From the NCBI GenBank assembly GCA_963770565.1, contig CAVYQE010000001.1, positions 1,120,001-1,184,000 of the forward strand: a stretch of 64,000 nt of DNA, given 5' to 3'. Below, piece by piece: positions 35,604 through 41,542 of this stretch. The notes beneath the pieces are model-generated. The model had not been told where the DNA came from, searched no databases, and saw only the letters and a list, made by a program, of their open reading frames with translations. Both the position numbers and the translations under genes were made by a program. Position 1 is the stretch's first letter. Each line of letters begins with the position of its first letter. The DNA is from an uncultured Actinomycetota bacterium. GTDB taxonomy: Bacteria > Actinomycetota > Actinomycetes > JAFAQI01.

Positions 35604-35678
35604 CCCGACGCGCCCGGACGCGAACGGCCGCGGGCTGACCGACAGGCATGCGGCGCAGTGGCGGGGGAGGATCTAACG

Positions 35679-35963
35679 ATGAGTGAAGCGTGGGCGGCAG
35701 TGGTGGTGGACGATGACCGCGTTCGAGTCACGAGGTGGACCTTCTCCGGCGGCGCCACCACGGGTGAGCACCGGCACGAGTTCGACTACGTCGTTGTGCC
35801 GATAACCGGCGGCTCGTTCACGGTTACGGCTGCCGACGGGTCGGTTCGCGAGATGGTGCAGACGGCCGGAGTCGCGTACCTCGGTAGGGCCGGCACTGAG
35901 CACGAAGTTGCCAACGCCGCGTCGGTGGAGACGGTCTTCGTCGAGATCGAACTGAAGAGTTAG
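35679..35963 (+). CDS. Cupin domain protein
   Basis: HRHEFDYVVVP, GTEHEV. Confidence 0.85.
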   Translation: MSEAWAAVVVDDDRVRVTRWTFSGGATTGEHRHEFDYVVVPITGGSFTVTAADGSVREMVQTAGVAYLGRAGTEHEVANAASVETVFVEIELKS

Positions 35964-36021
35964 CGACGGTCAACAGATAAATGCCGGACGAATTCGCGGC
36001 ACTTCGAGGATCATCGTTGCA

Positions 36022-37209
36022 GTGACACGGACCAAGCGGGGCCCACGCCACGAGTCGAAGCGACTCATCTCGTGGGCATCGATCATCGAGCCGAACACAC
36101 TCGAGCAGGCGCGGACCGCGTCCCAGATGCCGTTCATCTACCCGCACCTCGCCTTGATGCCCGACGCCCATCTCGGCAAGGGGGCGACTGTCGGCTCGGT
36201 GATTCCGACCCTCGGCGCGATCATCCCGGCGGCCGTCGGGGTCGACATCGGCTGCGGCATGATTGCCGTGCGCACCCAGTTCGAGCGGGCAGACTTCGGC
36301 GGCCGGTCGCTCGCCGAGCTTCGCGAGTCGATCGAGCGCGCGATTCCGCTTTCCGCCGGCAAGTACAACTCGGCGCTGACCGAGACCGCGACCGCTCGAT
36401 GCGACGACGACTTGGCGACGATGGACGGTGCGGAGACTGCGCAGCGCCTCGCCCCCAACTGGCGCCTTCAGCTCGGCACGCTCGGGTCGGGCAATCACTT
36501 CATCGAGGTGACCGTCGATGAGAACGACGCGATCTGGCTGTTCCTCCACTCCGGGTCGCGCGGGGTGGGCAACAAGATGGCGCAGCATCACATCCAGCGC
36601 GCGCAGCAGCTGTGCAAGCAGTGGTGGATCCAGCTGCCTGATCCCGACCTGGCCTACCTGGTCGAGGGCACCGAGGACTTCTGGGCCTACATCCGCGACC
36701 TGCGGTGGGCGCAGCATTTCGCGCTGCTCAATCGCGAGGAGATGATGGACCGCGTTGTCGGGTGCGTGACCCAGTGGATCGGTACGCCGGTGGTCGAGCA
36801 GGAGCGGATCAACTGCCACCACAACTTCACGCAGCAGGAGGAGCACTTCGGCAAGCAGGTCTGGCTCTCGCGCAAGGGCGCGATCGAGGCCACGGTCAGC
36901 AAGCCGGGCCTGATCCCCGGATCGATGGGGACGGCGTCGTACGTCGTGGTCGGCAAGGGCAACGCGCTGTCGCTCAACTCCTCGCCGCACGGCGCGGGGC
37001 GCAACTACTCCCGCTCGGCGGCCCGCAAGGCGTTCACCGCGGAGCAGCTTCGCGAGGCGATGGACGGCATCGAGTATCGCGACTCGGACGCGTTCATCGA
37101 CGAGATCCCGCAGGCGTACAAGGACATCGATGAGGTCATGGCCGATGCCGCCGACCTGGTCGAGGTCCGGCACGTGCTGCGCCAGATCGTCAACGTCAAG
37201 GGCGACTGA
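36022..37209 (+). CDS. rtcB: RNA 2',3'-cyclic phosphate/3'-P to 5'-OH ligase RtcB
   Basis: MPDAH, GVDIGCG, GSGNHF, HSGSRG, HHN, RKGA, PGSMG, SPHGAGR. Confidence 0.95.
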   Translation: MTRTKRGPRHESKRLISWASIIEPNTLEQARTASQMPFIYPHLALMPDAHLGKGATVGSVIPTLGAIIPAAVGVDIGCGMIAVRTQFERADFGGRSLAELRESIERAIPLSAGKYNSALTETATARCDDDLATMDGAETAQRLAPNWRLQLGTLGSGNHFIEVTVDENDAIWLFLHSGSRGVGNKMAQHHIQRAQQLCKQWWIQLPDPDLAYLVEGTEDFWAYIRDLRWAQHFALLNREEMMDRVVGCVTQWIGTPVVEQERINCHHNFTQQEEHFGKQVWLSRKGAIEATVSKPGLIPGSMGTASYVVVGKGNALSLNSSPHGAGRNYSRSAARKAFTAEQLREAMDGIEYRDSDAFIDEIPQAYKDIDEVMADAADLVEVRHVLRQIVNVKGD

Positions 37210-37235
37210 TTCGGCGGATTCACCCGGTAAATGCA

Positions 37236-37264
37236 TTGACGCACAACGCCTTTGGCCTCACTCT
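37236..37264 (+). promoter_or_regulatory. Putative sigma70-type promoter of tRNA array
   Basis: TTGACG-N17-CACTCT. Confidence 0.5.
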
Positions 37265-37414
37265 CGACCACGTGCCTGAAACCAGAAGCAATGAATGCGG
37301 TCGCCGACGGCAACCGCATGTGGTGCCGGCGCACCGCGCGTTCGTCGCGCGATCTGACGAGAAGTCGACTCGACTTCGTTAGCTCGCGCAGCGGCGTGTG
37401 ATGCGCCGGCGCGA

Positions 37415-37487
37415 GCGGTGGTCGTCCAACCGGCCAGGATTCCCGGTTCCAACCCGGGCGATGAGGGTTCGAACCCTTCCCACCGTG
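37415..37487 (+). tRNA. tRNA-Trp(CCA)
   Basis: Acceptor GCGGTGG/CCACCGT, loop TT-CCA-AC, T-loop TTCGAAC, G73. Confidence 0.88.
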
Positions 37488-37493
37488 CGGTCG

Positions 37494-37543
37494 CGTGCCC
37501 GAAAGCGGGCGCGGGTCTAGTGAACCTTGAGAACTCCACAGTG
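37494..37543 (+). promoter_or_regulatory. rrn-like boxB hairpin + boxA antitermination element
   Basis: Hairpin CGTGCCCG-AAAG-CGGGCGCG followed by TGAACCTTGAGAACTCCACAGTG. Confidence 0.65.
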
Positions 37544-37588
37544 GTGCCAACGAAAGACGATGCGTCGCCGGTGCGCCGGCGGCGCCTA

Positions 37589-37659
37589 CTGGACGTGGTG
37601 TAGCGGGAGCACGCGTGGTTCGGGTCTACGCGGTGGAGGTTCGACTCCTCCCGTCTGGA
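37589..37659 (+). tRNA. tRNA-Pro(CGG)
   Basis: C1:G72, A73, loop TT-CGG-GT, T-arm GGAGG-TTCGACT-CCTCC. Confidence 0.85.
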
Positions 37660-37671
37660 CGTTTTCGCACA

Positions 37672-37742
37672 GTGGACGTGGTGTAGGGGCAACATGCCTG
37701 GCTTCCACCCAGGCGTCGTGGGTTCGATCCCCACCGTCCGCA
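37672..37742 (+). tRNA. tRNA-Gly(TCC), atypical A73
   Basis: Acceptor GTGGACG/CGTCCGC, loop CT-TCC-AC. Confidence 0.85.
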
Positions 37743-37765
37743 CGGTGCAGCGATGCTGCACTTAG

Positions 37766-37839
37766 GCCGCTCTAGCCCAATTGGTAGAGGTCCGCGGCTC
37801 AGACCCGCGACGGTGAGGGTTCGACTCCCTCGGGCGGCA
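37766..37839 (+). tRNA. tRNA-Leu(CAG) with short variable loop
   Basis: Acceptor GCCGCTC/GGGCGGC, loop CT-CAG-AC, 5-nt variable region, A73. Confidence 0.85.
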
Positions 37840-37860
37840 CTGCATCGCAGGATGCGCAAT

Positions 37861-37931
37861 TCCGGGATGGTCCAACGGAAGGACGCGGGGCTCTGAACCC
37901 CGAGATCGAGGTTCGAGTCCTTGCCCCGGAG
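37861..37931 (+). tRNA. tRNA-Gln(CTG)
   Basis: U1:A72, G73, loop CT-CTG-AA; A7-C66 mismatch. Confidence 0.88.
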
Positions 37932-37941
37932 CTCAGTTCAG

Positions 37942-38014
37942 ACCGCGTGAGCATGTCGGGTCATGCACCGGACTCTTACTCCGGGGAACACGGGTTCAAG
38001 TCCCTGACGCGGTA
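37942..38014 (+). tRNA. tRNA-Lys(CTT), atypical
   Basis: Acceptor ACCGCGT/ACGCGGT, loop CT-CTT-AC; G at position 8 and bulged T-stem. Confidence 0.75.
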
Positions 38015-38020
38015 CGACGA

Positions 38021-38091
38021 TCCGATGTCGCTCAACGGGAGAGCGCCTGATTGTTACTCAGGAGATCGGGGTTCGAGTCCCTGCATCGGAG
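38021..38091 (+). tRNA. tRNA-Asn(GTT)
   Basis: Acceptor TCCGATG/CATCGGA, G73, loop TT-GTT-AC. Confidence 0.9.
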
Positions 38092-38102
38092 CTGTCAATC
38101 CA

Positions 38103-38174
38103 ACCTCCGTGGCTCAACGGATACAGCACCGGCCTACGAAGCCGGGGACGCAGGTTCGACTCCTGCCGGGGGTA
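38103..38174 (+). tRNA. tRNA-Arg(ACG)
   Basis: Acceptor ACCTCCG/CGGGGGT, D-loop GGATA (A20), loop CT-ACG-AA. Confidence 0.9.
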
Positions 38175-38175
38175 C

Positions 38176-38250
38176 GGTGGCTGTCGTCCAACGGCAGGGC
38201 GCCGGGTCGTGATCCCGGTGACGTCGGTTCGACTCCGACCAGTCACCCCA
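38176..38250 (+). tRNA. tRNA-His(GTG) with C33
   Basis: G-1:C73, encoded CCA, loop TC-GTG-AT. Confidence 0.88.
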
Positions 38251-38255
38251 ACCAA

Positions 38256-38321
38256 CGCTGGCGCGGGCGCCGACGAGGTCTCATGAGCCGGGTTCGCGTG
38301 GTTCGACTCCACGGCCAGCGA
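38256..38321 (+). ncRNA. D-armless tRNA-like RNA with CAT anticodon-like loop
   Basis: Perfect acceptor CGCTGGC/GCCAGCG + A, perfect T-arm CGTGG-TTCGACT-CCACG, loop CT-CAT-GA on a 3-bp stem, no D-arm. Confidence 0.65.
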
Positions 38322-38332
38322 CGCACGGTCAA

Positions 38333-38405
38333 GTCTCTGTAGCTCAGCGGAAAGAGCGCCGCCTTCCGAAGGCGGGTGTCGCAGGTTCGAGTCCTGCCGG
38401 GGACA
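38333..38405 (+). tRNA. tRNA-Arg(CCG)
   Basis: Acceptor GTCTCTG/CGGGGAC, loop TT-CCG-AA. Confidence 0.9.
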
Positions 38406-38428
38406 CGGGCCCCCGCGGCGCGGGCGGC

Positions 38429-39127
38429 TTACGGGTCGATCGCCGATGACACCAACGTCGTGGCCTGTTCATGGTGCTGCTCCGGCTTCGGTGTCGGTCG
38501 TGGCCCGACCGCGGCCGCCAGGAGCGAAGCGTTCGGGACAGAGAGCGGCCGCCCTTCGGTGATCAGCGTCACGTAGGTCATCCCGATGCCGGCAACAGTG
38601 CCTTCGATCGGGCCGCCGAGCGATCCGCTGCGGATCTGAATCGCGTCCCCGACCCGAAACGGCCGGGCCAGCAGGAGGACGACGCCGGCGAAGATGTTGC
38701 CGAGCGACTGTTGTGCGGCGATTCCGACGATCACCCCGGTGATTGCGCCGCCCAGCAGCAGGTTTCTGATCGGTACGTCGAAAATGCTGAGCGTCGTGAC
38801 CAGCACGATGAGGTAGCCGAAGACGGCGACCAGCCAGCGCATCGCACCTGCATGGCTCGGTCCGATCCGGCTGCCGATGACAAGCGAGGCCTGACCCGCG
38901 ATTGCCCGAACCGCGATTAGGGCGCTGATCACGAACGTCAACCCGCCGAGGCCGGCGATCAGCTGTTGACGTGACGAACCATGGACGTTGCCGAGCGCAC
39001 CACAGGCAACCAGCGCGAGCACTGCAACAGTCACCATGCAGGTGGCAAGACGCAGGTGTGGGCGCATTTCAGCGGGAGATCGGGGCAACACGAACCGGCC
39101 GCGCGCGCCGCGGAAGGTCAATCGCAC
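38429..39127 (-). CDS. MscS family mechanosensitive channel (short form)
   Basis: GAITGVIVGIAAQQSLGNIFAG...PFRVGD...VPN; start uncertain. Confidence 0.85.
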   Translation of the reverse strand: MRLTFRGARGRFVLPRSPAEMRPHLRLATCMVTVAVLALVACGALGNVHGSSRQQLIAGLGGLTFVISALIAVRAIAGQASLVIGSRIGPSHAGAMRWLVAVFGYLIVLVTTLSIFDVPIRNLLLGGAITGVIVGIAAQQSLGNIFAGVVLLLARPFRVGDAIQIRSGSLGGPIEGTVAGIGMTYVTLITEGRPLSVPNASLLAAAVGPRPTPKPEQHHEQATTLVSSAIDP

Positions 39128-39260
39128 TCATTTACTCGTACCCGCTCGATGCCCGTCATCAACCTCGCATGCGCCGGCCGATTTCACCGGTTGAGTTGGA
39201 GCTTCGCGGGGAAACACCACACCGAATCAACCGCCCCGGCCCTCGACAAGGTGGTGTGCA

Positions 39261-40796
39261 ATGTCAACCGCGATCAGCGAACGCGTGTCGTCCGATACGC
39301 ACGATTCACAAAGCCTGGTTCCAGCGCGGCTGGACCGGCTCGGTTGGTCGCACTTCCACACCCGGTTGGTGATCGCTCTTGGGGTCGCCTGGATCCTTGA
39401 CGGGCTCGAGATCACGATCGCGAGCAACGTGACCAACATCATCTCGAGCAAGTCCGCACTCGGGCTCGGCTCAGGGTCGGTCGCCTTCTCGGTCGGCACC
39501 ATCTACCTGCTCGGCGAGGTGGCCGGAGCACTCTTCTTCGGGCGGATGTCGGACCGCTGGGGTCGCAAGAACCTGTTCATGATCACCCTCGGGGTCTACC
39601 TCGCCGGTGGCGCGCTGACCGCATGTACGGCGGGGAACGGACCCGGCTGGGTCTACTGGCTGGATCTCACTCGCTTCATCGCCGGTATGGGTATCGGCGG
39701 CGAGTACGCCGCGATCAACTCCGCGATCGACGAGCTGATTCCGGCGAGATATCGCGGCCGGGTCGACATCGCCGTGAACGGCACGTACTGGGGTGGCGCA
39801 CTGATCGCGTCCGTTCTCACCGTGGCAGTTGTCAACCACATCTCGCCGCACTACTCGTGGCGCTTCGCCTTCCTGATCGGCCCGGCGCTCGGGTTCACGA
39901 TCCTGTTCGTCCGGAAGAACCTGCCGGAAAGCCCGCGATGGCTTCTTATGCACGGCCGAGTGGACGAGGCCGAGGCAGCAGTGAAGGCGATCGAAGACGA
40001 GGCGGCGAAGAGCACCGAGCTCGGCCCGGTTGACGAGTCGAAGGCAATCGACATCAGCCCGGCCAACAACATCGGCTTCGTTGCGCTCGCGCGCACGTTG
40101 TTCCGCGAGTATCCGAAGCGGGCGATTCTCGGCGCGACGCTGATGATCACCCAGTCGTTCCTCTACAACTCGATCTTCTTCACCTACGCGCTCGTACTTA
40201 CGAAGGTCTACGGCGTCGGCACCGGAAGCACGCCGTACTATTTCATGCTGTTTGCGGCCGGAAACCTGTTGGGACCGCTGCTGATCGGCCACCTGTTCGA
40301 CAGCATCGGCCGGCGCAAGATGATCTCCGGCACCTACCTGATCTCGGCCGTGTTGCTCGCGATCTCGGCGGTGCTGTTCAAGGCTGGCGACCTCGATGCA
40401 GTCACCCAGACGGTCTGCTGGTGCGTGATCTTCTTCTTCGCATCCGCCGGAGCCAGCGCGGCGTACCTCACCGTGTCCGAGGTGTTCCCGGTTGAGGTGC
40501 GGGCGAAGGCGATCGCGGTGTTCTTCTCGATCGCGCAGAGCTTCGGTGCGTTCGGCCCGTGGCTGTACGGCCATCTGATCGGCGACGGCACTGACCACAC
40601 GAAGCTCTTCTACGGCTACCTGCTCGGCGCCGCGGTGATGGCCATCGGCGGGGTCGTCGACCTGGCCATCGGCATCGACTCCGAGGGAAAGTCGCTCGAG
40701 GACATTGCCCCGCCGCTGTCGCTGCAGCGCACCGGATCGGCCTCGCTCAAGTCACGTGGCCCGCGGGTCATCCATGCAGACCCGCCTTCGCGGTAG
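39261..40796 (+). CDS. MFS transporter (sugar porter-like)
   Basis: WILDGLE, DRWGRK, GGEYAAINSAIDELIP, PESPRWL. Confidence 0.92.
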   Translation: MSTAISERVSSDTHDSQSLVPARLDRLGWSHFHTRLVIALGVAWILDGLEITIASNVTNIISSKSALGLGSGSVAFSVGTIYLLGEVAGALFFGRMSDRWGRKNLFMITLGVYLAGGALTACTAGNGPGWVYWLDLTRFIAGMGIGGEYAAINSAIDELIPARYRGRVDIAVNGTYWGGALIASVLTVAVVNHISPHYSWRFAFLIGPALGFTILFVRKNLPESPRWLLMHGRVDEAEAAVKAIEDEAAKSTELGPVDESKAIDISPANNIGFVALARTLFREYPKRAILGATLMITQSFLYNSIFFTYALVLTKVYGVGTGSTPYYFMLFAAGNLLGPLLIGHLFDSIGRRKMISGTYLISAVLLAISAVLFKAGDLDAVTQTVCWCVIFFFASAGASAAYLTVSEVFPVEVRAKAIAVFFSIAQSFGAFGPWLYGHLIGDGTDHTKLFYGYLLGAAVMAIGGVVDLAIGIDSEGKSLEDIAPPLSLQRTGSASLKSRGPRVIHADPPSR

Positions 40797-40819
40797 AACT
40801 CGCTCGGTTGCCGCTCCGG

Positions 40820-41542
40820 CTATCTTCGGGGCGCGTCGATCTCGTCGATGATCGCCTGTGCGATCTCGCGCAACTTGCGATGCGAGGTTTGTGACAGCTT
40901 GACGAGTACGGCGAATGCCTCCTCGGCGTTGCACCGCCGGCCTCCCATGATCACGCCCTTGGCTTGCTCGATGACAGAGCGGGACGTCATCGCGGCCGTC
41001 ATCTGCTCCGCGAGCGAGGTGGCCGAGAAGTACAGGTCGGCGTTGTTCAGCGTCACTGCGGCATACACGGAGAGGTCCTCCGCGGCTTGCACCGAGTCCG
41101 GCCCGAACGCATTGCGTTCGACGCCGTAGATGTTCAGCGCCGCGACATGCCGATCCTCGACCAGCAGCGGGACCGACAGCGAGCTTCGAAGGCCCGCGGC
41201 CGCCGCTCGGGCGCCGTACTCGGGCCAGCGGGGGTCGGCCTCCTGGTCATCGACCACGACGGTGCGCCGCTCCTCAAGCGCGGTCAGGCACGGGCCGGTG
41301 CCCGCGTCGTACTGGTAGTCGTCGATGGTGCGCGCGAAGTCCGAGGTCGAGGCGGCGGTTGCGGGGCGTCGCTCGTGCATGGTGATCGACACGTCGAAGG
41401 CGCCGGCGACGGTTTGCTTGGTGACCTCCGCCAGGCAGGCCAGGACGTCCTCCAGCGACTTGTCGCTGAGCACGATCACTCCCAGTGCCGCGATCGCCTC
41501 CGGCAGCGCCATCGGTTCGGCGCGAATCATCTCCTCAACCAT
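40820..41542 (-). CDS. GAF-ANTAR domain protein
   Basis: GPC GAF; SRSVIEQAKGVIM...AFAVL...KLREIA. Confidence 0.9.
   Translation of the reverse strand: MVEEMIRAEPMALPEAIAALGVIVLSDKSLEDVLACLAEVTKQTVAGAFDVSITMHERRPATAASTSDFARTIDDYQYDAGTGPCLTALEERRTVVVDDQEADPRWPEYGARAAAAGLRSSLSVPLLVEDRHVAALNIYGVERNAFGPDSVQAAEDLSVYAAVTLNNADLYFSATSLAEQMTAAMTSRSVIEQAKGVIMGGRRCNAEEAFAVLVKLSQTSHRKLREIAQAIIDEIDAPRR

Follow-up and report, generated by a model that had tools for sequence, protein, structure and literature searches.

L-arrays are described as dense, non-periodic runs of tRNA genes in the same direction, longer than gene accretion would give and with 'up to 43' genes (Santamaria-Gomez et al. 2021, PMC8421152). 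According to that paper they add supernumerary isodecoders and not new anticodons, are present in some close relatives only and spread horizontally, are silent in standard conditions, and are co-regulated with rtcB through shared promoter repeats. The trn operon of Anabaena (PCC 7120) is reported to be silent until translational stress induces it and to be co-regulated with rtcB via the TrcR repressor (PMC8421152; PMC10272220), which bears out what the first-pass annotation of the present locus had stated about a cyanobacterial tRNA operon. In Anabaena, 23 of 26 array tRNAs are reported to be charged in vivo, and the idea that array tRNAs act as a sponge is raised in the discussion of the same work (PMC8421152).

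In Salmonella enterica, rtcB belongs to the RNA repair operon rsr-yrlBA-rtcBA, which is described as controlled by RtcR, with Ro60 and YrlA as partners of RtcB (Chen et al. 2014, PMC4201824; Hughes et al. 2020, PMC7790460), and tRNA halves have been proposed as activators of RtcR (PMC7790460; PMC10159003). The criteria of Chen et al. for YrlA are a location within 4 kb of a Ro60 gene and an E value below 5e-5 (PMC4201824). In mycobacteria, a tRNA array unit is by definition a set of 20 or more tRNA genes with 2 or more of them per kb (Tran et al. 2015, PMC4758250). Such units are reported to lie usually on plasmids, phages (cluster C, Bixzunavirus) or islands, and their tRNAs have been proposed to counter defence systems that target tRNAs (PMC4758250; Morgado and Vicente 2018, PMC5966550; PMC12803027); RtcB has 0 occurrences in the text of PMC12803027. 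Single unusual tRNAs are also described, among them the type I tRNA-Leu(CAA) of Streptomyces coelicolor, where the single actinobacterial LeuRS is reported to charge both types (Fan et al. 2019, PMC6614811).

In this paper we describe a locus from an uncultured soil actinobacterium in which rtcB is followed by a compact tRNA array. The window, that is, the whole stretch of DNA that was analysed, is 64 kb long; its genome (G000) was compared with that of the nearest species, of the same genus (G003), and with one from another genus (G006). The array is a new, eroded member of the already described L-array/RtcB arrangement. Like the L-array of Anabaena, it is a dense, non-periodic and same-strand set of extra tRNAs that are supernumerary isodecoders (10/10 anticodons duplicate housekeeping ones), and, as in other L-arrays, its presence is patchy among close relatives (3/41 genomes) and some members are pseudogenes. 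rtcB lies in the array neighbourhood in some cyanobacteria and is co-regulated with the array in Anabaena; here rtcB stands directly before the array. Unlike L-arrays of 23-43 genes, the array has 10 genes in the window and 16 in the sister genus, a length borderline for 'long', and unlike the Anabaena trn operon it is chromosomal and actinobacterial and is preceded by its own long, structured leader, with no TrcR-type direct repeats found in that leader or in the rtcB upstream region.

rtcB, the array and its leader

The rtcB open reading frame is intact and encodes 395 aa (Table 1). Its product matches the Pfam RtcB family PF01139 over model positions 1-426 of 426 (E 1.9e-119, 400.1 bits; the curated cut-off is 27 bits) and aligns with Pyrococcus horikoshii RtcB (1uc2/4dwq) across MPDxHxGxG, DIxCG, GSGNHF, H(S/T)GSRG, HN and HGAGR, which we take to be the metal-binding and guanylylation motifs; the conserved His, Cys and Asp stretches of the P. 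horikoshii protein are kept in the alignment. The product is a full-length RtcB RNA ligase of predicted activity, and a search of its own genome found it to be the single RtcB match.

The stop codon of rtcB is separated by 205 nt from the first of ten plus-strand tRNA genes called by ARAGORN, which occupy 992 nt (37415-38406) in the order of Table 1. This is the layout that the first-pass annotation had read from the letters: an intact rtcB, then after about 200 nt the same ten anticodons on one strand within 1 kb, together with one tRNA-like gene and with no phage or integrase genes nearby. A Pfam scan of the 41 larger open reading frames of the window likewise gave no integrase, transposase or phage families, and PADLOC returned 0 defence families for the nine neighbouring proteins. 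All ten tRNAs match Rfam RF00005 at 39.4-65.5 bits (gathering score 29), their anticodons are all different, and their spacers are 1-100 nt long. ARAGORN called no other tRNA gene in the window and 52 others in the 4.43 Mb genome. The density of about 10 per kb is sufficient for a tRNA array unit as defined for mycobacteria, and the gene number of 10 is not. Contigs of other public runs (X1 record 7; X5 records 19, 20 and 24) span rtcB, the leader and the Trp, Pro and Gly genes with zero differences; X1 may be the sample from which the window derives. These contigs are DNA, and a search among RNA runs found none that contains the locus.

Table 1. Features of the rtcB-array locus, with positions in the 64-kb window
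Feature	Position	Strand	Basis and remarks
rtcB, 3'-phosphate/5'-OH RNA ligase	36022..37209	+	Pfam PF01139; alignment to P. horikoshii RtcB
Conserved array leader	37229..37414	+	Homology with G006
tRNA-Trp(CCA), 74 nt	37415..37488	+	ARAGORN; Rfam 50.3 bits; 95% identity with G006 copy, 69% with housekeeping Trp
100-nt spacer: hairpin, conserved 23-nt box (37527-37549), second hairpin	37489..37588	+	Three-genome alignment
tRNA-Pro(CGG), 72 nt	37589..37660	+	ARAGORN, Rfam; TGG anticodon in G006; deleted in G003
tRNA-Gly(TCC), 72 nt	37672..37743	+	ARAGORN, Rfam; deleted in G003
22-nt scar, small hairpin	37744..37765	+	G006 alignment: both flanks kept, core absent
tRNA-Leu(CAG), type I, 75 nt	37766..37840	+	ARAGORN
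tRNA-Gln(CTG), 72 nt	37861..37932	+	ARAGORN, Rfam
tRNA-Lys(CTT), 74 nt	37942..38015	+	ARAGORN, Rfam 39.4 bits
tRNA-Asn(GTT), 72 nt	38021..38092	+	ARAGORN, Rfam
tRNA-Arg(ACG), 73 nt	38103..38175	+	ARAGORN, Rfam; 97% identity with G006 copy
tRNA-His(GTG), 74 nt	38177..38250	+	ARAGORN; G-1 and CCA encoded
Degenerate tRNA-Met(CAU)-like element without D arm	~38257..38320 (interval 38251-38332)	+	Conserved position in G003 and G006
tRNA-Arg(CCG), 74 nt, last gene of the module	38333..38406	+	ARAGORN, Rfam; 84% identity with housekeeping gene

The array had also been called a divergent spare set, and a genome-wide tRNA check agrees with this: it is redundant, because for each of the ten anticodons the genome has a housekeeping gene at another site, and it shares 59-84% identity with these counterparts. 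The anticodon loops differ outside the anticodon in 10/10 pairs (18/40 positions), with A37 in nine of ten array tRNAs and G37 in six of ten housekeeping counterparts. At loop positions 32, 37 and 38, 17/30 are changed against a whole-molecule divergence of 16-41%, a modest excess on raw counts. The array tRNAs fold as complete cloverleaves with normal T and D loops and keep the identity features that can be read from sequence (G-1/C73 in His, U1-A72 in Gln and Asn, A73 in Leu). Encoded CCA is absent in 9/10 array genes, which is not special because most housekeeping tRNA genes (40/52) are also without it.

Some members are irregular. tRNA-Lys(CTT), the least canonical, has G at position 8 and a T stem with two mismatches at its base, and tRNA-His(GTG) carries C33 in place of U33, as does its G003 counterpart. 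The extra tRNA-like gene is the Met-like element, which retains the acceptor stem, the T arm and a CUCAUGA loop. It received no call by default ARAGORN and no Rfam match at E<=1; its better-kept copy in G006 is called a D-arm-less tRNA-Met(CAU) in ARAGORN mitochondrial mode, which made no call for the copies of the window and G003.

The 186-nt leader is homologous with G006 from 37229, 20 nt past the rtcB stop, at 69% identity. It contains a -35-like TTGACG (37236-37241) with CACTCT 17 nt later, a conserved box (37270-37287) and two hairpins, one small and the other long and imperfect (~37323-37412), the latter stopping 2 nt short of tRNA-Trp. Its folding energy is -93.1 kcal/mol (z -4.68; 0/200 shuffles equally stable), and the basal helix is maintained in G006 via G-U and one-sided changes, with 3 compensatory pairs. 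The leader motifs occur once in the genome when up to 2 mismatches are allowed, and a sigma-70 scan of the leader gave 0 sites against 0.3 expected. A leader peptide was rejected: the short ATG frame with a Trp codon is without a ribosome-binding site and stops after 8 codons in G006, and all three G000/G006 differences in it are amino-acid-changing. In the 100-nt spacer behind tRNA-Trp the 23-nt box is unique in the genome and near-identical in G000, G003 and G006, while the hairpins on both sides differ in sequence; no tRNA was called there even with lowered thresholds. The search for an operator common to the array leader and the sequence upstream of rtcB found none. The only element that they share is the 7-base TAAATGC, which was rejected as an operator on the evidence of G003, where the sequence differs, and no regulator of the array was identified.

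The array module in related genomes

The array lies beside rtcB in G003 as well, where RtcB is 95% identical, and in G006 it is without rtcB. The linkage on which the first-pass annotation had staked its proposal thus held in the nearest species and failed in the other genus; adjacency of rtcB and array is seen within one genus only. The G003 array has 8 tRNAs, Pro and Gly being lost, and a variant in run X3 has likewise lost these two (8 tRNAs). The G006 array has 16 tRNAs; compared with it, the window array is without Phe, Thr, Ala, Asp, Val, Tyr and a YrlA-like RNA. The ten-gene set looks like the remainder after deletions from a longer array and not a chosen set.

The site of the 22-nt scar is occupied in G006 by the YrlA-like RNA (~128 nt) and tRNA-Thr. 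This RNA scores 38.7 bits (E 5.3e-6 and 2.8e-7); posterior probabilities of the alignment are high across its tRNA-like domain, the closed acceptor stem of 8 bp included, and its outer, Ro-binding stem aligns poorly. The G006 array is followed after 200 nt by a Ro60/TROVE+VWA gene, which is ~2 kb from the RNA, so that the match falls within the limits of Chen et al. but below the RF02553 gathering score of 69. In the window, YrlA had no match between 35500 and 39500 at E<=1. As in rsr-yrlBA-rtcBA, RtcB, a Ro60/TROVE protein and a tRNA-mimicking YrlA-like RNA occur beside or inside this array family. Unlike that operon, the window's genome (94.9% complete; PF01137, PF05731 and PF06956 searched) yielded no RtcR, RtcA, archease or TROVE, and the Y RNA is reduced to the scar; the locus is not a member of the RtcR-controlled operon. 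RtcB and Ro60 were found together in none of the genomes examined.

Between G000 and G006 the tRNA genes are 90.4% identical (665/736) and the spacers 59% (90/152), and among 20 changed stem pairs 7 are two-sided and still paired, 8 are one-sided and still paired, and 5 are broken. The contrast between genes and spacers, together with the compensatory stem changes, means that the tRNAs are under selection, and the comparison shows that the array tRNAs have, judged by these substitutions, been kept by selection since the two genera split. Homology runs from the start of the leader to Arg-CCG, and the flanks of the two genera are unrelated; array and leader form a discrete module. An rtcB remnant upstream of the G006 array was rejected (tblastn best E 0.41), as was homology between the AAA_16 ATPase genes upstream in G000 and G006 (BLASTP E 1.9). 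The G003 array also differs from that of G000 in its flanks at both ends, and G003 is without the cupin, MscS and MFS genes.

Multi-tRNA array matches were found in 3/41 related genomes, the window's own included, and not in three of the four other genomes of the same genus (completeness 96, 84 and 55%); rtcB is present in only 4/36 genomes of the family. A survey of rtcB neighbourhoods in Actinomycetota, as proposed in the first-pass annotation, turned up no similar arrays: 3 or more tRNAs occur at 0/80 of the closest other actinobacterial RtcB loci (searched to 4 kb on each side) and at 0/30 of the best-scoring ones in a 301-genome phylum sample (to 1.5 kb on each side). A single tRNA is near rtcB at 9/80 and 1/30 of these loci. 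Two diagnostic tRNA words occur in genome contigs of G003 and G006 only, in 2 metagenome contigs and in 0 viral contigs. A phage or plasmid origin gained no support: among 50,697 phage records and 72,556 plasmid records, blastn gave single-tRNA matches only, at <=18% query coverage, and the one Bixzunavirus array inspected has a different gene order. Like the mycobacterial units, the array is actinobacterial and its extra tRNAs diverge from the chromosomal ones, most in the anticodon domain; unlike them, it has an unrelated gene order, and similarity is limited to single tRNAs.

Explanations of the locus

The reading that we favour, with slightly better than even confidence, is that the locus is a supernumerary tRNA array of the horizontally spreading L-array kind, cut to ten genes and a decayed element, which stands behind the only rtcB of the genome and serves as a low-level reserve raised by damage. 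Transcription would begin at a weak promoter where the leader starts and would yield the array as one precursor, which would be processed and CCA-tailed as are the other tRNAs of the host. The array would normally be low and would rise on damage to translation or to the tRNA pool; its tRNAs would be replacement decoders, possibly less recognised by tRNA-cutting enzymes, and RtcB would meanwhile reseal tRNAs whose cleavage had left 2',3'-cyclic phosphate and 5'-OH ends. Inducibility of the array and the repair-and-replace role may be expected by analogy with the Anabaena trn operon. The first-pass annotation had also pointed to the Trp, Leu-CAG, Gln, Lys, Asn, His and Arg tRNAs as reported targets of VapC, PrrC, MazF or colicin D/E5-type nucleases. 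That list does not discriminate, because almost all tRNA species are known to be cut by one nuclease or another.

The sister array has a YrlA-like RNA and a Ro60-like protein instead of RtcB, which suggests that the module may work with any gene of RNA repair or surveillance that happens to be available. Since rtcB is present in so few genomes of the family, a chance landing by rtcB, and separately by a Ro60 gene, would be unlikely. The adjacency to rtcB in one genus and to Ro60 and a YrlA-like RNA in another argues for what would be a real link to RNA repair and surveillance. Counting against the favoured reading are the erosion of the array, with its degenerate Met-like element, the C33 of His and the irregular Lys, as well as the failure to find a shared operator or a regulator and the lack of an array at the other rtcB loci surveyed (0/80 and 0/30).

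It is unlikely, but still credible, that the array is a decaying passenger, the functionless leftover of an acquired and ultimately phage- or plasmid-type tRNA cluster, whose position by rtcB or Ro60 would reflect joint arrival of a cassette and differential loss. Stepwise losses, from 16 tRNAs and a Y RNA in G006 to 10 tRNAs in G000 and 8 in G003 and the X3 variant, are as this would predict, and the irregular members, a -10 element that is not sigma-70-like, the patchy distribution and the change of flanks at both ends between G000 and G003 agree with it. However, conservation is much higher in the remaining tRNA genes (90%) than in their spacers (59%), and 15/20 changed pairs are still paired. 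Joint arrival would also sit poorly with G006, where no rtcB remnant was found and homology ends cleanly at the leader, and neither the neighbourhood, with no mobile-element genes, nor the single-tRNA matches to phages and plasmids point to such a source.

Complete cloverleaves, normal T and D loops and retained identity features speak for decoding, as do anticodons that, read from the list, fit the G/C-ending codons typical of a high-GC host, and the charging of 23/26 Anabaena array tRNAs in vivo (PMC8421152). We regard as distinctly unlikely a non-decoding role, in which the array RNAs would be decoys or sentinels like Y RNAs, absorbing anticodon nucleases, or would yield halves feeding or signalling to RtcB and Ro60. 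Such a role would account for the YrlA-like tRNA mimic and Ro60-like gene of the sister array and for the conservation of a D-arm-less tRNA-like element in all three genomes, and it has precedents in the sponge idea (PMC8421152) and in the tRNA halves proposed to activate RtcR in Salmonella (PMC7790460; PMC10159003).

Speculative, and in our estimate very unlikely, is a scheme in which array and leader form a self-contained, portable stress unit docking beside the RNA repair or surveillance gene that a genome has, RtcB in one genus and Ro60 with a Y RNA in another, with the long hairpin before the first tRNA as a new riboregulator that would hold the precursor until damage and the spare tRNAs as preferred clients or sentinels. 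An ordinary constitutive tRNA operon, giving extra dosage for frequent codons beside a coincidental rtcB, would explain the close same-strand genes, the conserved promoter-like element upstream and a lack of encoded CCA shared with most housekeeping genes, but is highly improbable given that the array was not found in 38/41 related genomes, three of the same genus included, that every one of its genes is a diverged copy of a housekeeping gene, that tRNAs for Ala, Val, Asp and Glu are missing though these would be among the commonest residues of a high-GC proteome and could be expected in an operon for dosage, and that the neighbour of the module from RNA repair or surveillance is a different gene in each of the two genera.

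If the favoured reading of a damage-responsive reserve is true, the locus would be an actinobacterial chromosomal case of a tRNA set split into housekeeping and reserve parts near RNA-repair genes. The most useful point is comparative: one array module stands beside RtcB, or beside a Ro60-like gene with a Y-RNA-like mimic, and this two-genus pattern is independent genomic support for a functional place of extra tRNA arrays in the RtcB/Ro60 response to RNA damage. The conserved leader is a candidate for keeping such arrays quiet. No new category is involved, as the pairing of array and rtcB is in print for cyanobacteria, and the L-array lists with PMC8421152 and the phage YrlA lists with PMC4201824 may already include actinobacterial arrays by rtcB or rsr.

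A smaller observation concerns tRNA-Leu(CAG). Like the type I tRNA-Leu of S. coelicolor, it combines a leucine anticodon with a short variable loop in an actinobacterial host; unlike that tRNA, which has the anticodon CAA, it has the anticodon CAG, and its gene lies in an accessory array. Its variable loop is 5 nt long, compared with an 86-nt type II housekeeping gene, and the same form is present in G003 and G006.

The rtcB locus and its spare tRNAs

The first-pass annotation had proposed that rtcB and an atypical 11-member tRNA array form an inducible repair-and-replace module, and its observations are correct in all particulars. The rtcB gene is intact and encodes an RtcB that covers PF01139 from end to end (positions 1-426, E 1.9e-119) and in which the conserved His, Cys and Asp stretches align with those of the solved Pyrococcus RtcB, and it is the only RtcB gene in the 4.43-Mb, 11-contig, 94.9%-complete genome. 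Its stop codon lies 205 nt before the first tRNA, close to the 200 nt estimated earlier. In the whole window ARAGORN calls ten tRNA genes and no more, all on the plus strand and with the anticodons originally read, and each scores 39.4-65.5 bits against the Rfam tRNA model (gathering score 29). The eleventh, tRNA-like gene is a degenerate Met-like element that is called by neither ARAGORN nor Rfam in the window and is kept at the equivalent position in two other genomes, G003 (the nearest species, of the same genus) and G006 (from a different genus within the family). Of the three copies, that of G006 is the best preserved and alone is recognized, as a D-arm-less tRNA-Met(CAU), and this only in the mitochondrial mode of ARAGORN. 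Integrase and phage genes, already reported as missing nearby, are absent among the 41 larger ORFs of the window in a Pfam scan, as are transposase genes; the immediate neighbours of rtcB and the array encode a citryl-CoA lyase, a small cupin, an MscS-type channel, an MFS transporter, a GAF-ANTAR protein and a sigma factor. Contigs from other public runs read through from rtcB across the leader into the first tRNAs and are identical there, which rules out an assembly artefact at the junction.

Features of the window, of the rest of its genome (G000) and of related loci
Feature	Location	Remark
rtcB	36022-37209	
Leader	37229-37414	186 nt ahead of tRNA-Trp
Long imperfect leader hairpin	about 37323-37412	
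Ten tRNA genes	37415-38406	plus strand
Scar	37744-37765	22 nt, at YrlA-like position of G006
Array tRNA-His	38177-38250	
Eleventh, Met-like element	38251-38332, core about 38257-38320	acceptor stem, T arm, CUCAUGA loop
Flanks variable within genus	35604-36005 and 38407-40827	both sides of rtcB-array block
G006 array (L091)		Trp, Pro(TGG), Phe, Gly, [gap], Thr, Leu(CAG), Gln, Lys, Asn, Ala, Asp, Arg(ACG), [gap], Val, His, Tyr, [insert], Met-like element, Arg(CCG)
GIY-YIG + Schlafen-group-3-helicase protein (G006)	L091:5095-6882	minus strand
Insert between tRNA-Tyr and Met-like element (G006)	L091:11690-12320	minus strand, ~640 nt
rtcB of G021 (L100)	G021:C5:739749-740931	
Compact tRNA-Gln(UUG)	G000:C3:2029-2100; G000:C4:3017-3087	71-72 nt
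PIN-domain ORF	G000:C2:766780-767148	
Housekeeping tRNA-Leu(CAG)	C2:767290-767375	
Odd ARAGORN calls	G000:C1:538505-538594; C2:320038-320134; C2:765184-765268; C10:107228-107310	

The suggestion of a divergent spare set was upheld by the genome-wide ARAGORN search, in which 52 of the 62 tRNA genes lie outside the array and cover all amino acids, and all ten array anticodons have a second gene elsewhere, with 59-84% identity between array and housekeeping copies. The array tRNAs are compact (72-75 nt, variable loops of 3-5 nt), and for Leu(CAG) the array carries a 75-nt type I tRNA gene where the housekeeping gene is type II, with 86 nt. Only the array His gene encodes CCA, a feature that does not set the array apart because 40 of the 52 housekeeping genes lack CCA as well. 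In the anticodon loop outside the anticodon, every array tRNA differs from its housekeeping partner (18 of 40 positions); A37 occurs in nine of ten array tRNAs and G37 in six of ten housekeeping genes. At position 33, where U is nearly universal, array tRNA-His has C in the window's genome and in G003 and U in G006. Phage tRNAs with altered anticodon loops reportedly evade tRNA-targeting defences (PMC10264068), and the LeuRS of Streptomyces coelicolor is described as charging type I tRNA-Leu (PMC6614811).

Distribution, shortening and maintenance of the array

Among 41 related genomes, the window's own included and the unpublished G032 and G040 counted as non-holders, matches to several array tRNAs occur only in the window's genome, G003 (94-96% identical) and G006 (77-84%), and the others match no more than a single tRNA. 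A search with two diagnostic words, drawn from tRNA-Trp and tRNA-Arg(ACG), matched only the G003 and G006 records among species-representative genomes and no viral contig; the two metagenome contigs that matched are duplicates of the G003-type and G006-type loci. In G003 the array lacks Pro and Gly, a deletion also present as a variant in the public run X3. The G003 flanks differ as well: the cupin ORF upstream of rtcB is absent, as are the downstream MscS and MFS genes, and the array abuts the GAF-ANTAR gene.

The G006 array has 16 genes in the same order as the window's, so the window array has been shortened from a longer form. The two loci are homologous from 20 nt past the stop codon of rtcB up to and including Arg(CCG). 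No rtcB was found in G006 (100% complete) at E<=1e-30; a remnant of rtcB upstream of its array was rejected (best tblastn match E 0.41), as was common ancestry of the ATPase genes upstream of the two loci, which are unrelated. About 200 nt past the G006 array, on the same strand, lies a gene for a 543-aa TROVE+VWA protein that matches Pfam TROVE (E 6.6e-16), TROVE chains in the PDB (E 1.4e-26) and human RO60 (E 1.2e-5), and matches NCBIfam Rsr at E 3.8e-8, far below the Rsr cut-off. The gap between Gly and Thr in G006 holds a whole-model YrlA match of 38.7 bits (E 5.3e-6 in 6 kb), which falls short of the gathering score, 69. High posterior probabilities attach to its T arm, D arm and closed 8-bp acceptor stem, and its outer stem is poorly aligned. 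Chen et al. (PMC4201824) warn that adjacent tRNAs can imitate YrlA; such an artefact is less likely here because the acceptor stem is closed and self-complementary. At this position the window retains only a scar.

Two further features of the G006 locus were observed. The ~640-nt insert is bordered by a ~19-nt duplication, the start of the Met-like element occurring once after Tyr and again before Arg-CCG, and resembles an insertion accompanied by target duplication. A GIY-YIG protein, whose Schlafen match is limited to the helicase domain, is encoded on the far side of the Ro60-like gene, ~5 kb downstream of the array; bacterial Schlafen proteins have been reported as defence nucleases.

The ten tRNA genes common to the window and G006 are 90.4% identical (665/736), the leader 69%, and the four comparable spacers 59% (90/152). 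Twenty stem pairs have changed, seven on both sides and eight on one side with pairing retained, and five are broken, some of these owing to an alignment shift in His. Since spacers are less conserved than tRNAs and most changed pairs still pair, the tRNAs have been maintained as tRNAs, which is hard to reconcile with a dead remnant; the stepwise gene losses show that the full set is not maintained.

Leader, regulation and the link to rtcB

The leader folds at -93.1 kcal/mol (z -4.68, none of 200 shuffles as stable), and the three-sequence consensus retains a small hairpin and a long imperfect hairpin, with three compensatory pairs in the fold and a 20-bp base of the long hairpin whose pairing survives in G006 by way of G-U pairs and changes on one side. 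The conserved block begins with TTGACG, a good -35 element, followed after 17 nt by CACTCT (CACCCT in G006), a poor -10; the pair went unreported in a sigma-70 scan and is a putative array promoter. The leader boxes and a 23-nt conserved box in the Trp-Pro spacer each occur once in the genome, and the region upstream of rtcB has nothing convincing in common with them, so there is no sequence evidence for a regulator common to rtcB and the array. RtcR, RtcA, archease and TROVE were not found in the window's 94.9%-complete genome.

The expected linkage of rtcB to the array in relatives stood in G003, where rtcB (protein 95% identical) is directly upstream, and failed in G006 and elsewhere. In the phylum sample RtcB is widespread, occurring in 180 of 301 genomes in a tally that counts 11 unpublished ones, and it is rare in the window's family (4/36 genomes). 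One family holder, G021, has an rtcB split over two frames with no tRNA within 17 kb; another, G041, has a 54%-identical RtcB adjoining a single tRNA. The survey took in 4 kb on each side of the 80 closest RtcB loci (67-77% identical) and 1.5 kb on each side of the 30 best-scoring loci of the phylum sample; no locus of either set has at least three tRNAs there. In the loci surveyed, the rtcB-array adjacency is confined to one genus. RtcB, Ro60 and YrlA are parts of one known Salmonella operon, and because the module adjoins the genome's only rtcB in one lineage and, in another lineage, a Ro60 gene, chance is an unlikely explanation of the adjacency. The rtcB of G021 matches at 86-92% identity in two overlapping pieces (residues 2-315 and 310-395); the gene is a frameshifted pseudogene or else carries a sequencing error.

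Long, rarely periodic, supernumerary tRNA arrays (L-arrays) are described as patchy across several phyla including Actinobacteria, and that of Anabaena as silent, induced by translation inhibitors and with 23 of 26 tRNAs charged; rtcB, picked out because it lies near L-arrays in other cyanobacteria, is co-induced with the Anabaena array (Santamaria-Gomez et al. 2021). The same authors weigh replacement and sponge roles, and TrcR is described as a repressor common to the Anabaena array and rtcB (PMC10272220). The silent, rtcB-co-regulated cyanobacterial operon mentioned in the first-pass annotation is confirmed by these papers. No actinobacterial array adjoining rtcB or rsr was found described in the literature searched, and RtcB is not mentioned in the paper on mycobacterial tRNA-array units (PMC12803027). 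The earlier interpretation is reasonable and only partly supported: redundancy and a link to RNA repair and surveillance are supported, inducibility and co-regulation are hypothetical, the rationale that the array tRNAs are nuclease targets is non-discriminating, and the idea of a purpose-built eleven-gene system gives way to an eroded member of an already known kind, of which G006 has a longer version.

Other tRNA genes in the genome

Contigs C3, C4 and C5 of the window's genome (~30 kb each) are 75-99% identical over 9.6-14.7 kb and could represent small replicons related to one another, integrated elements, or strain variants that fell into one bin. The compact tRNA-Gln genes on C3 and C4 are the only Gln-UUG genes in the genome (ARAGORN). 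One of the five PIN-domain ORFs lies ~140 nt from the housekeeping tRNA-Leu(CAG). Four odd ARAGORN calls outside the window, comprising a two-base anticodon, a 97-nt 'Gly', an 85-nt 'Ala' and an 83-nt 'Val', resemble false positives, genes with introns or decayed genes.
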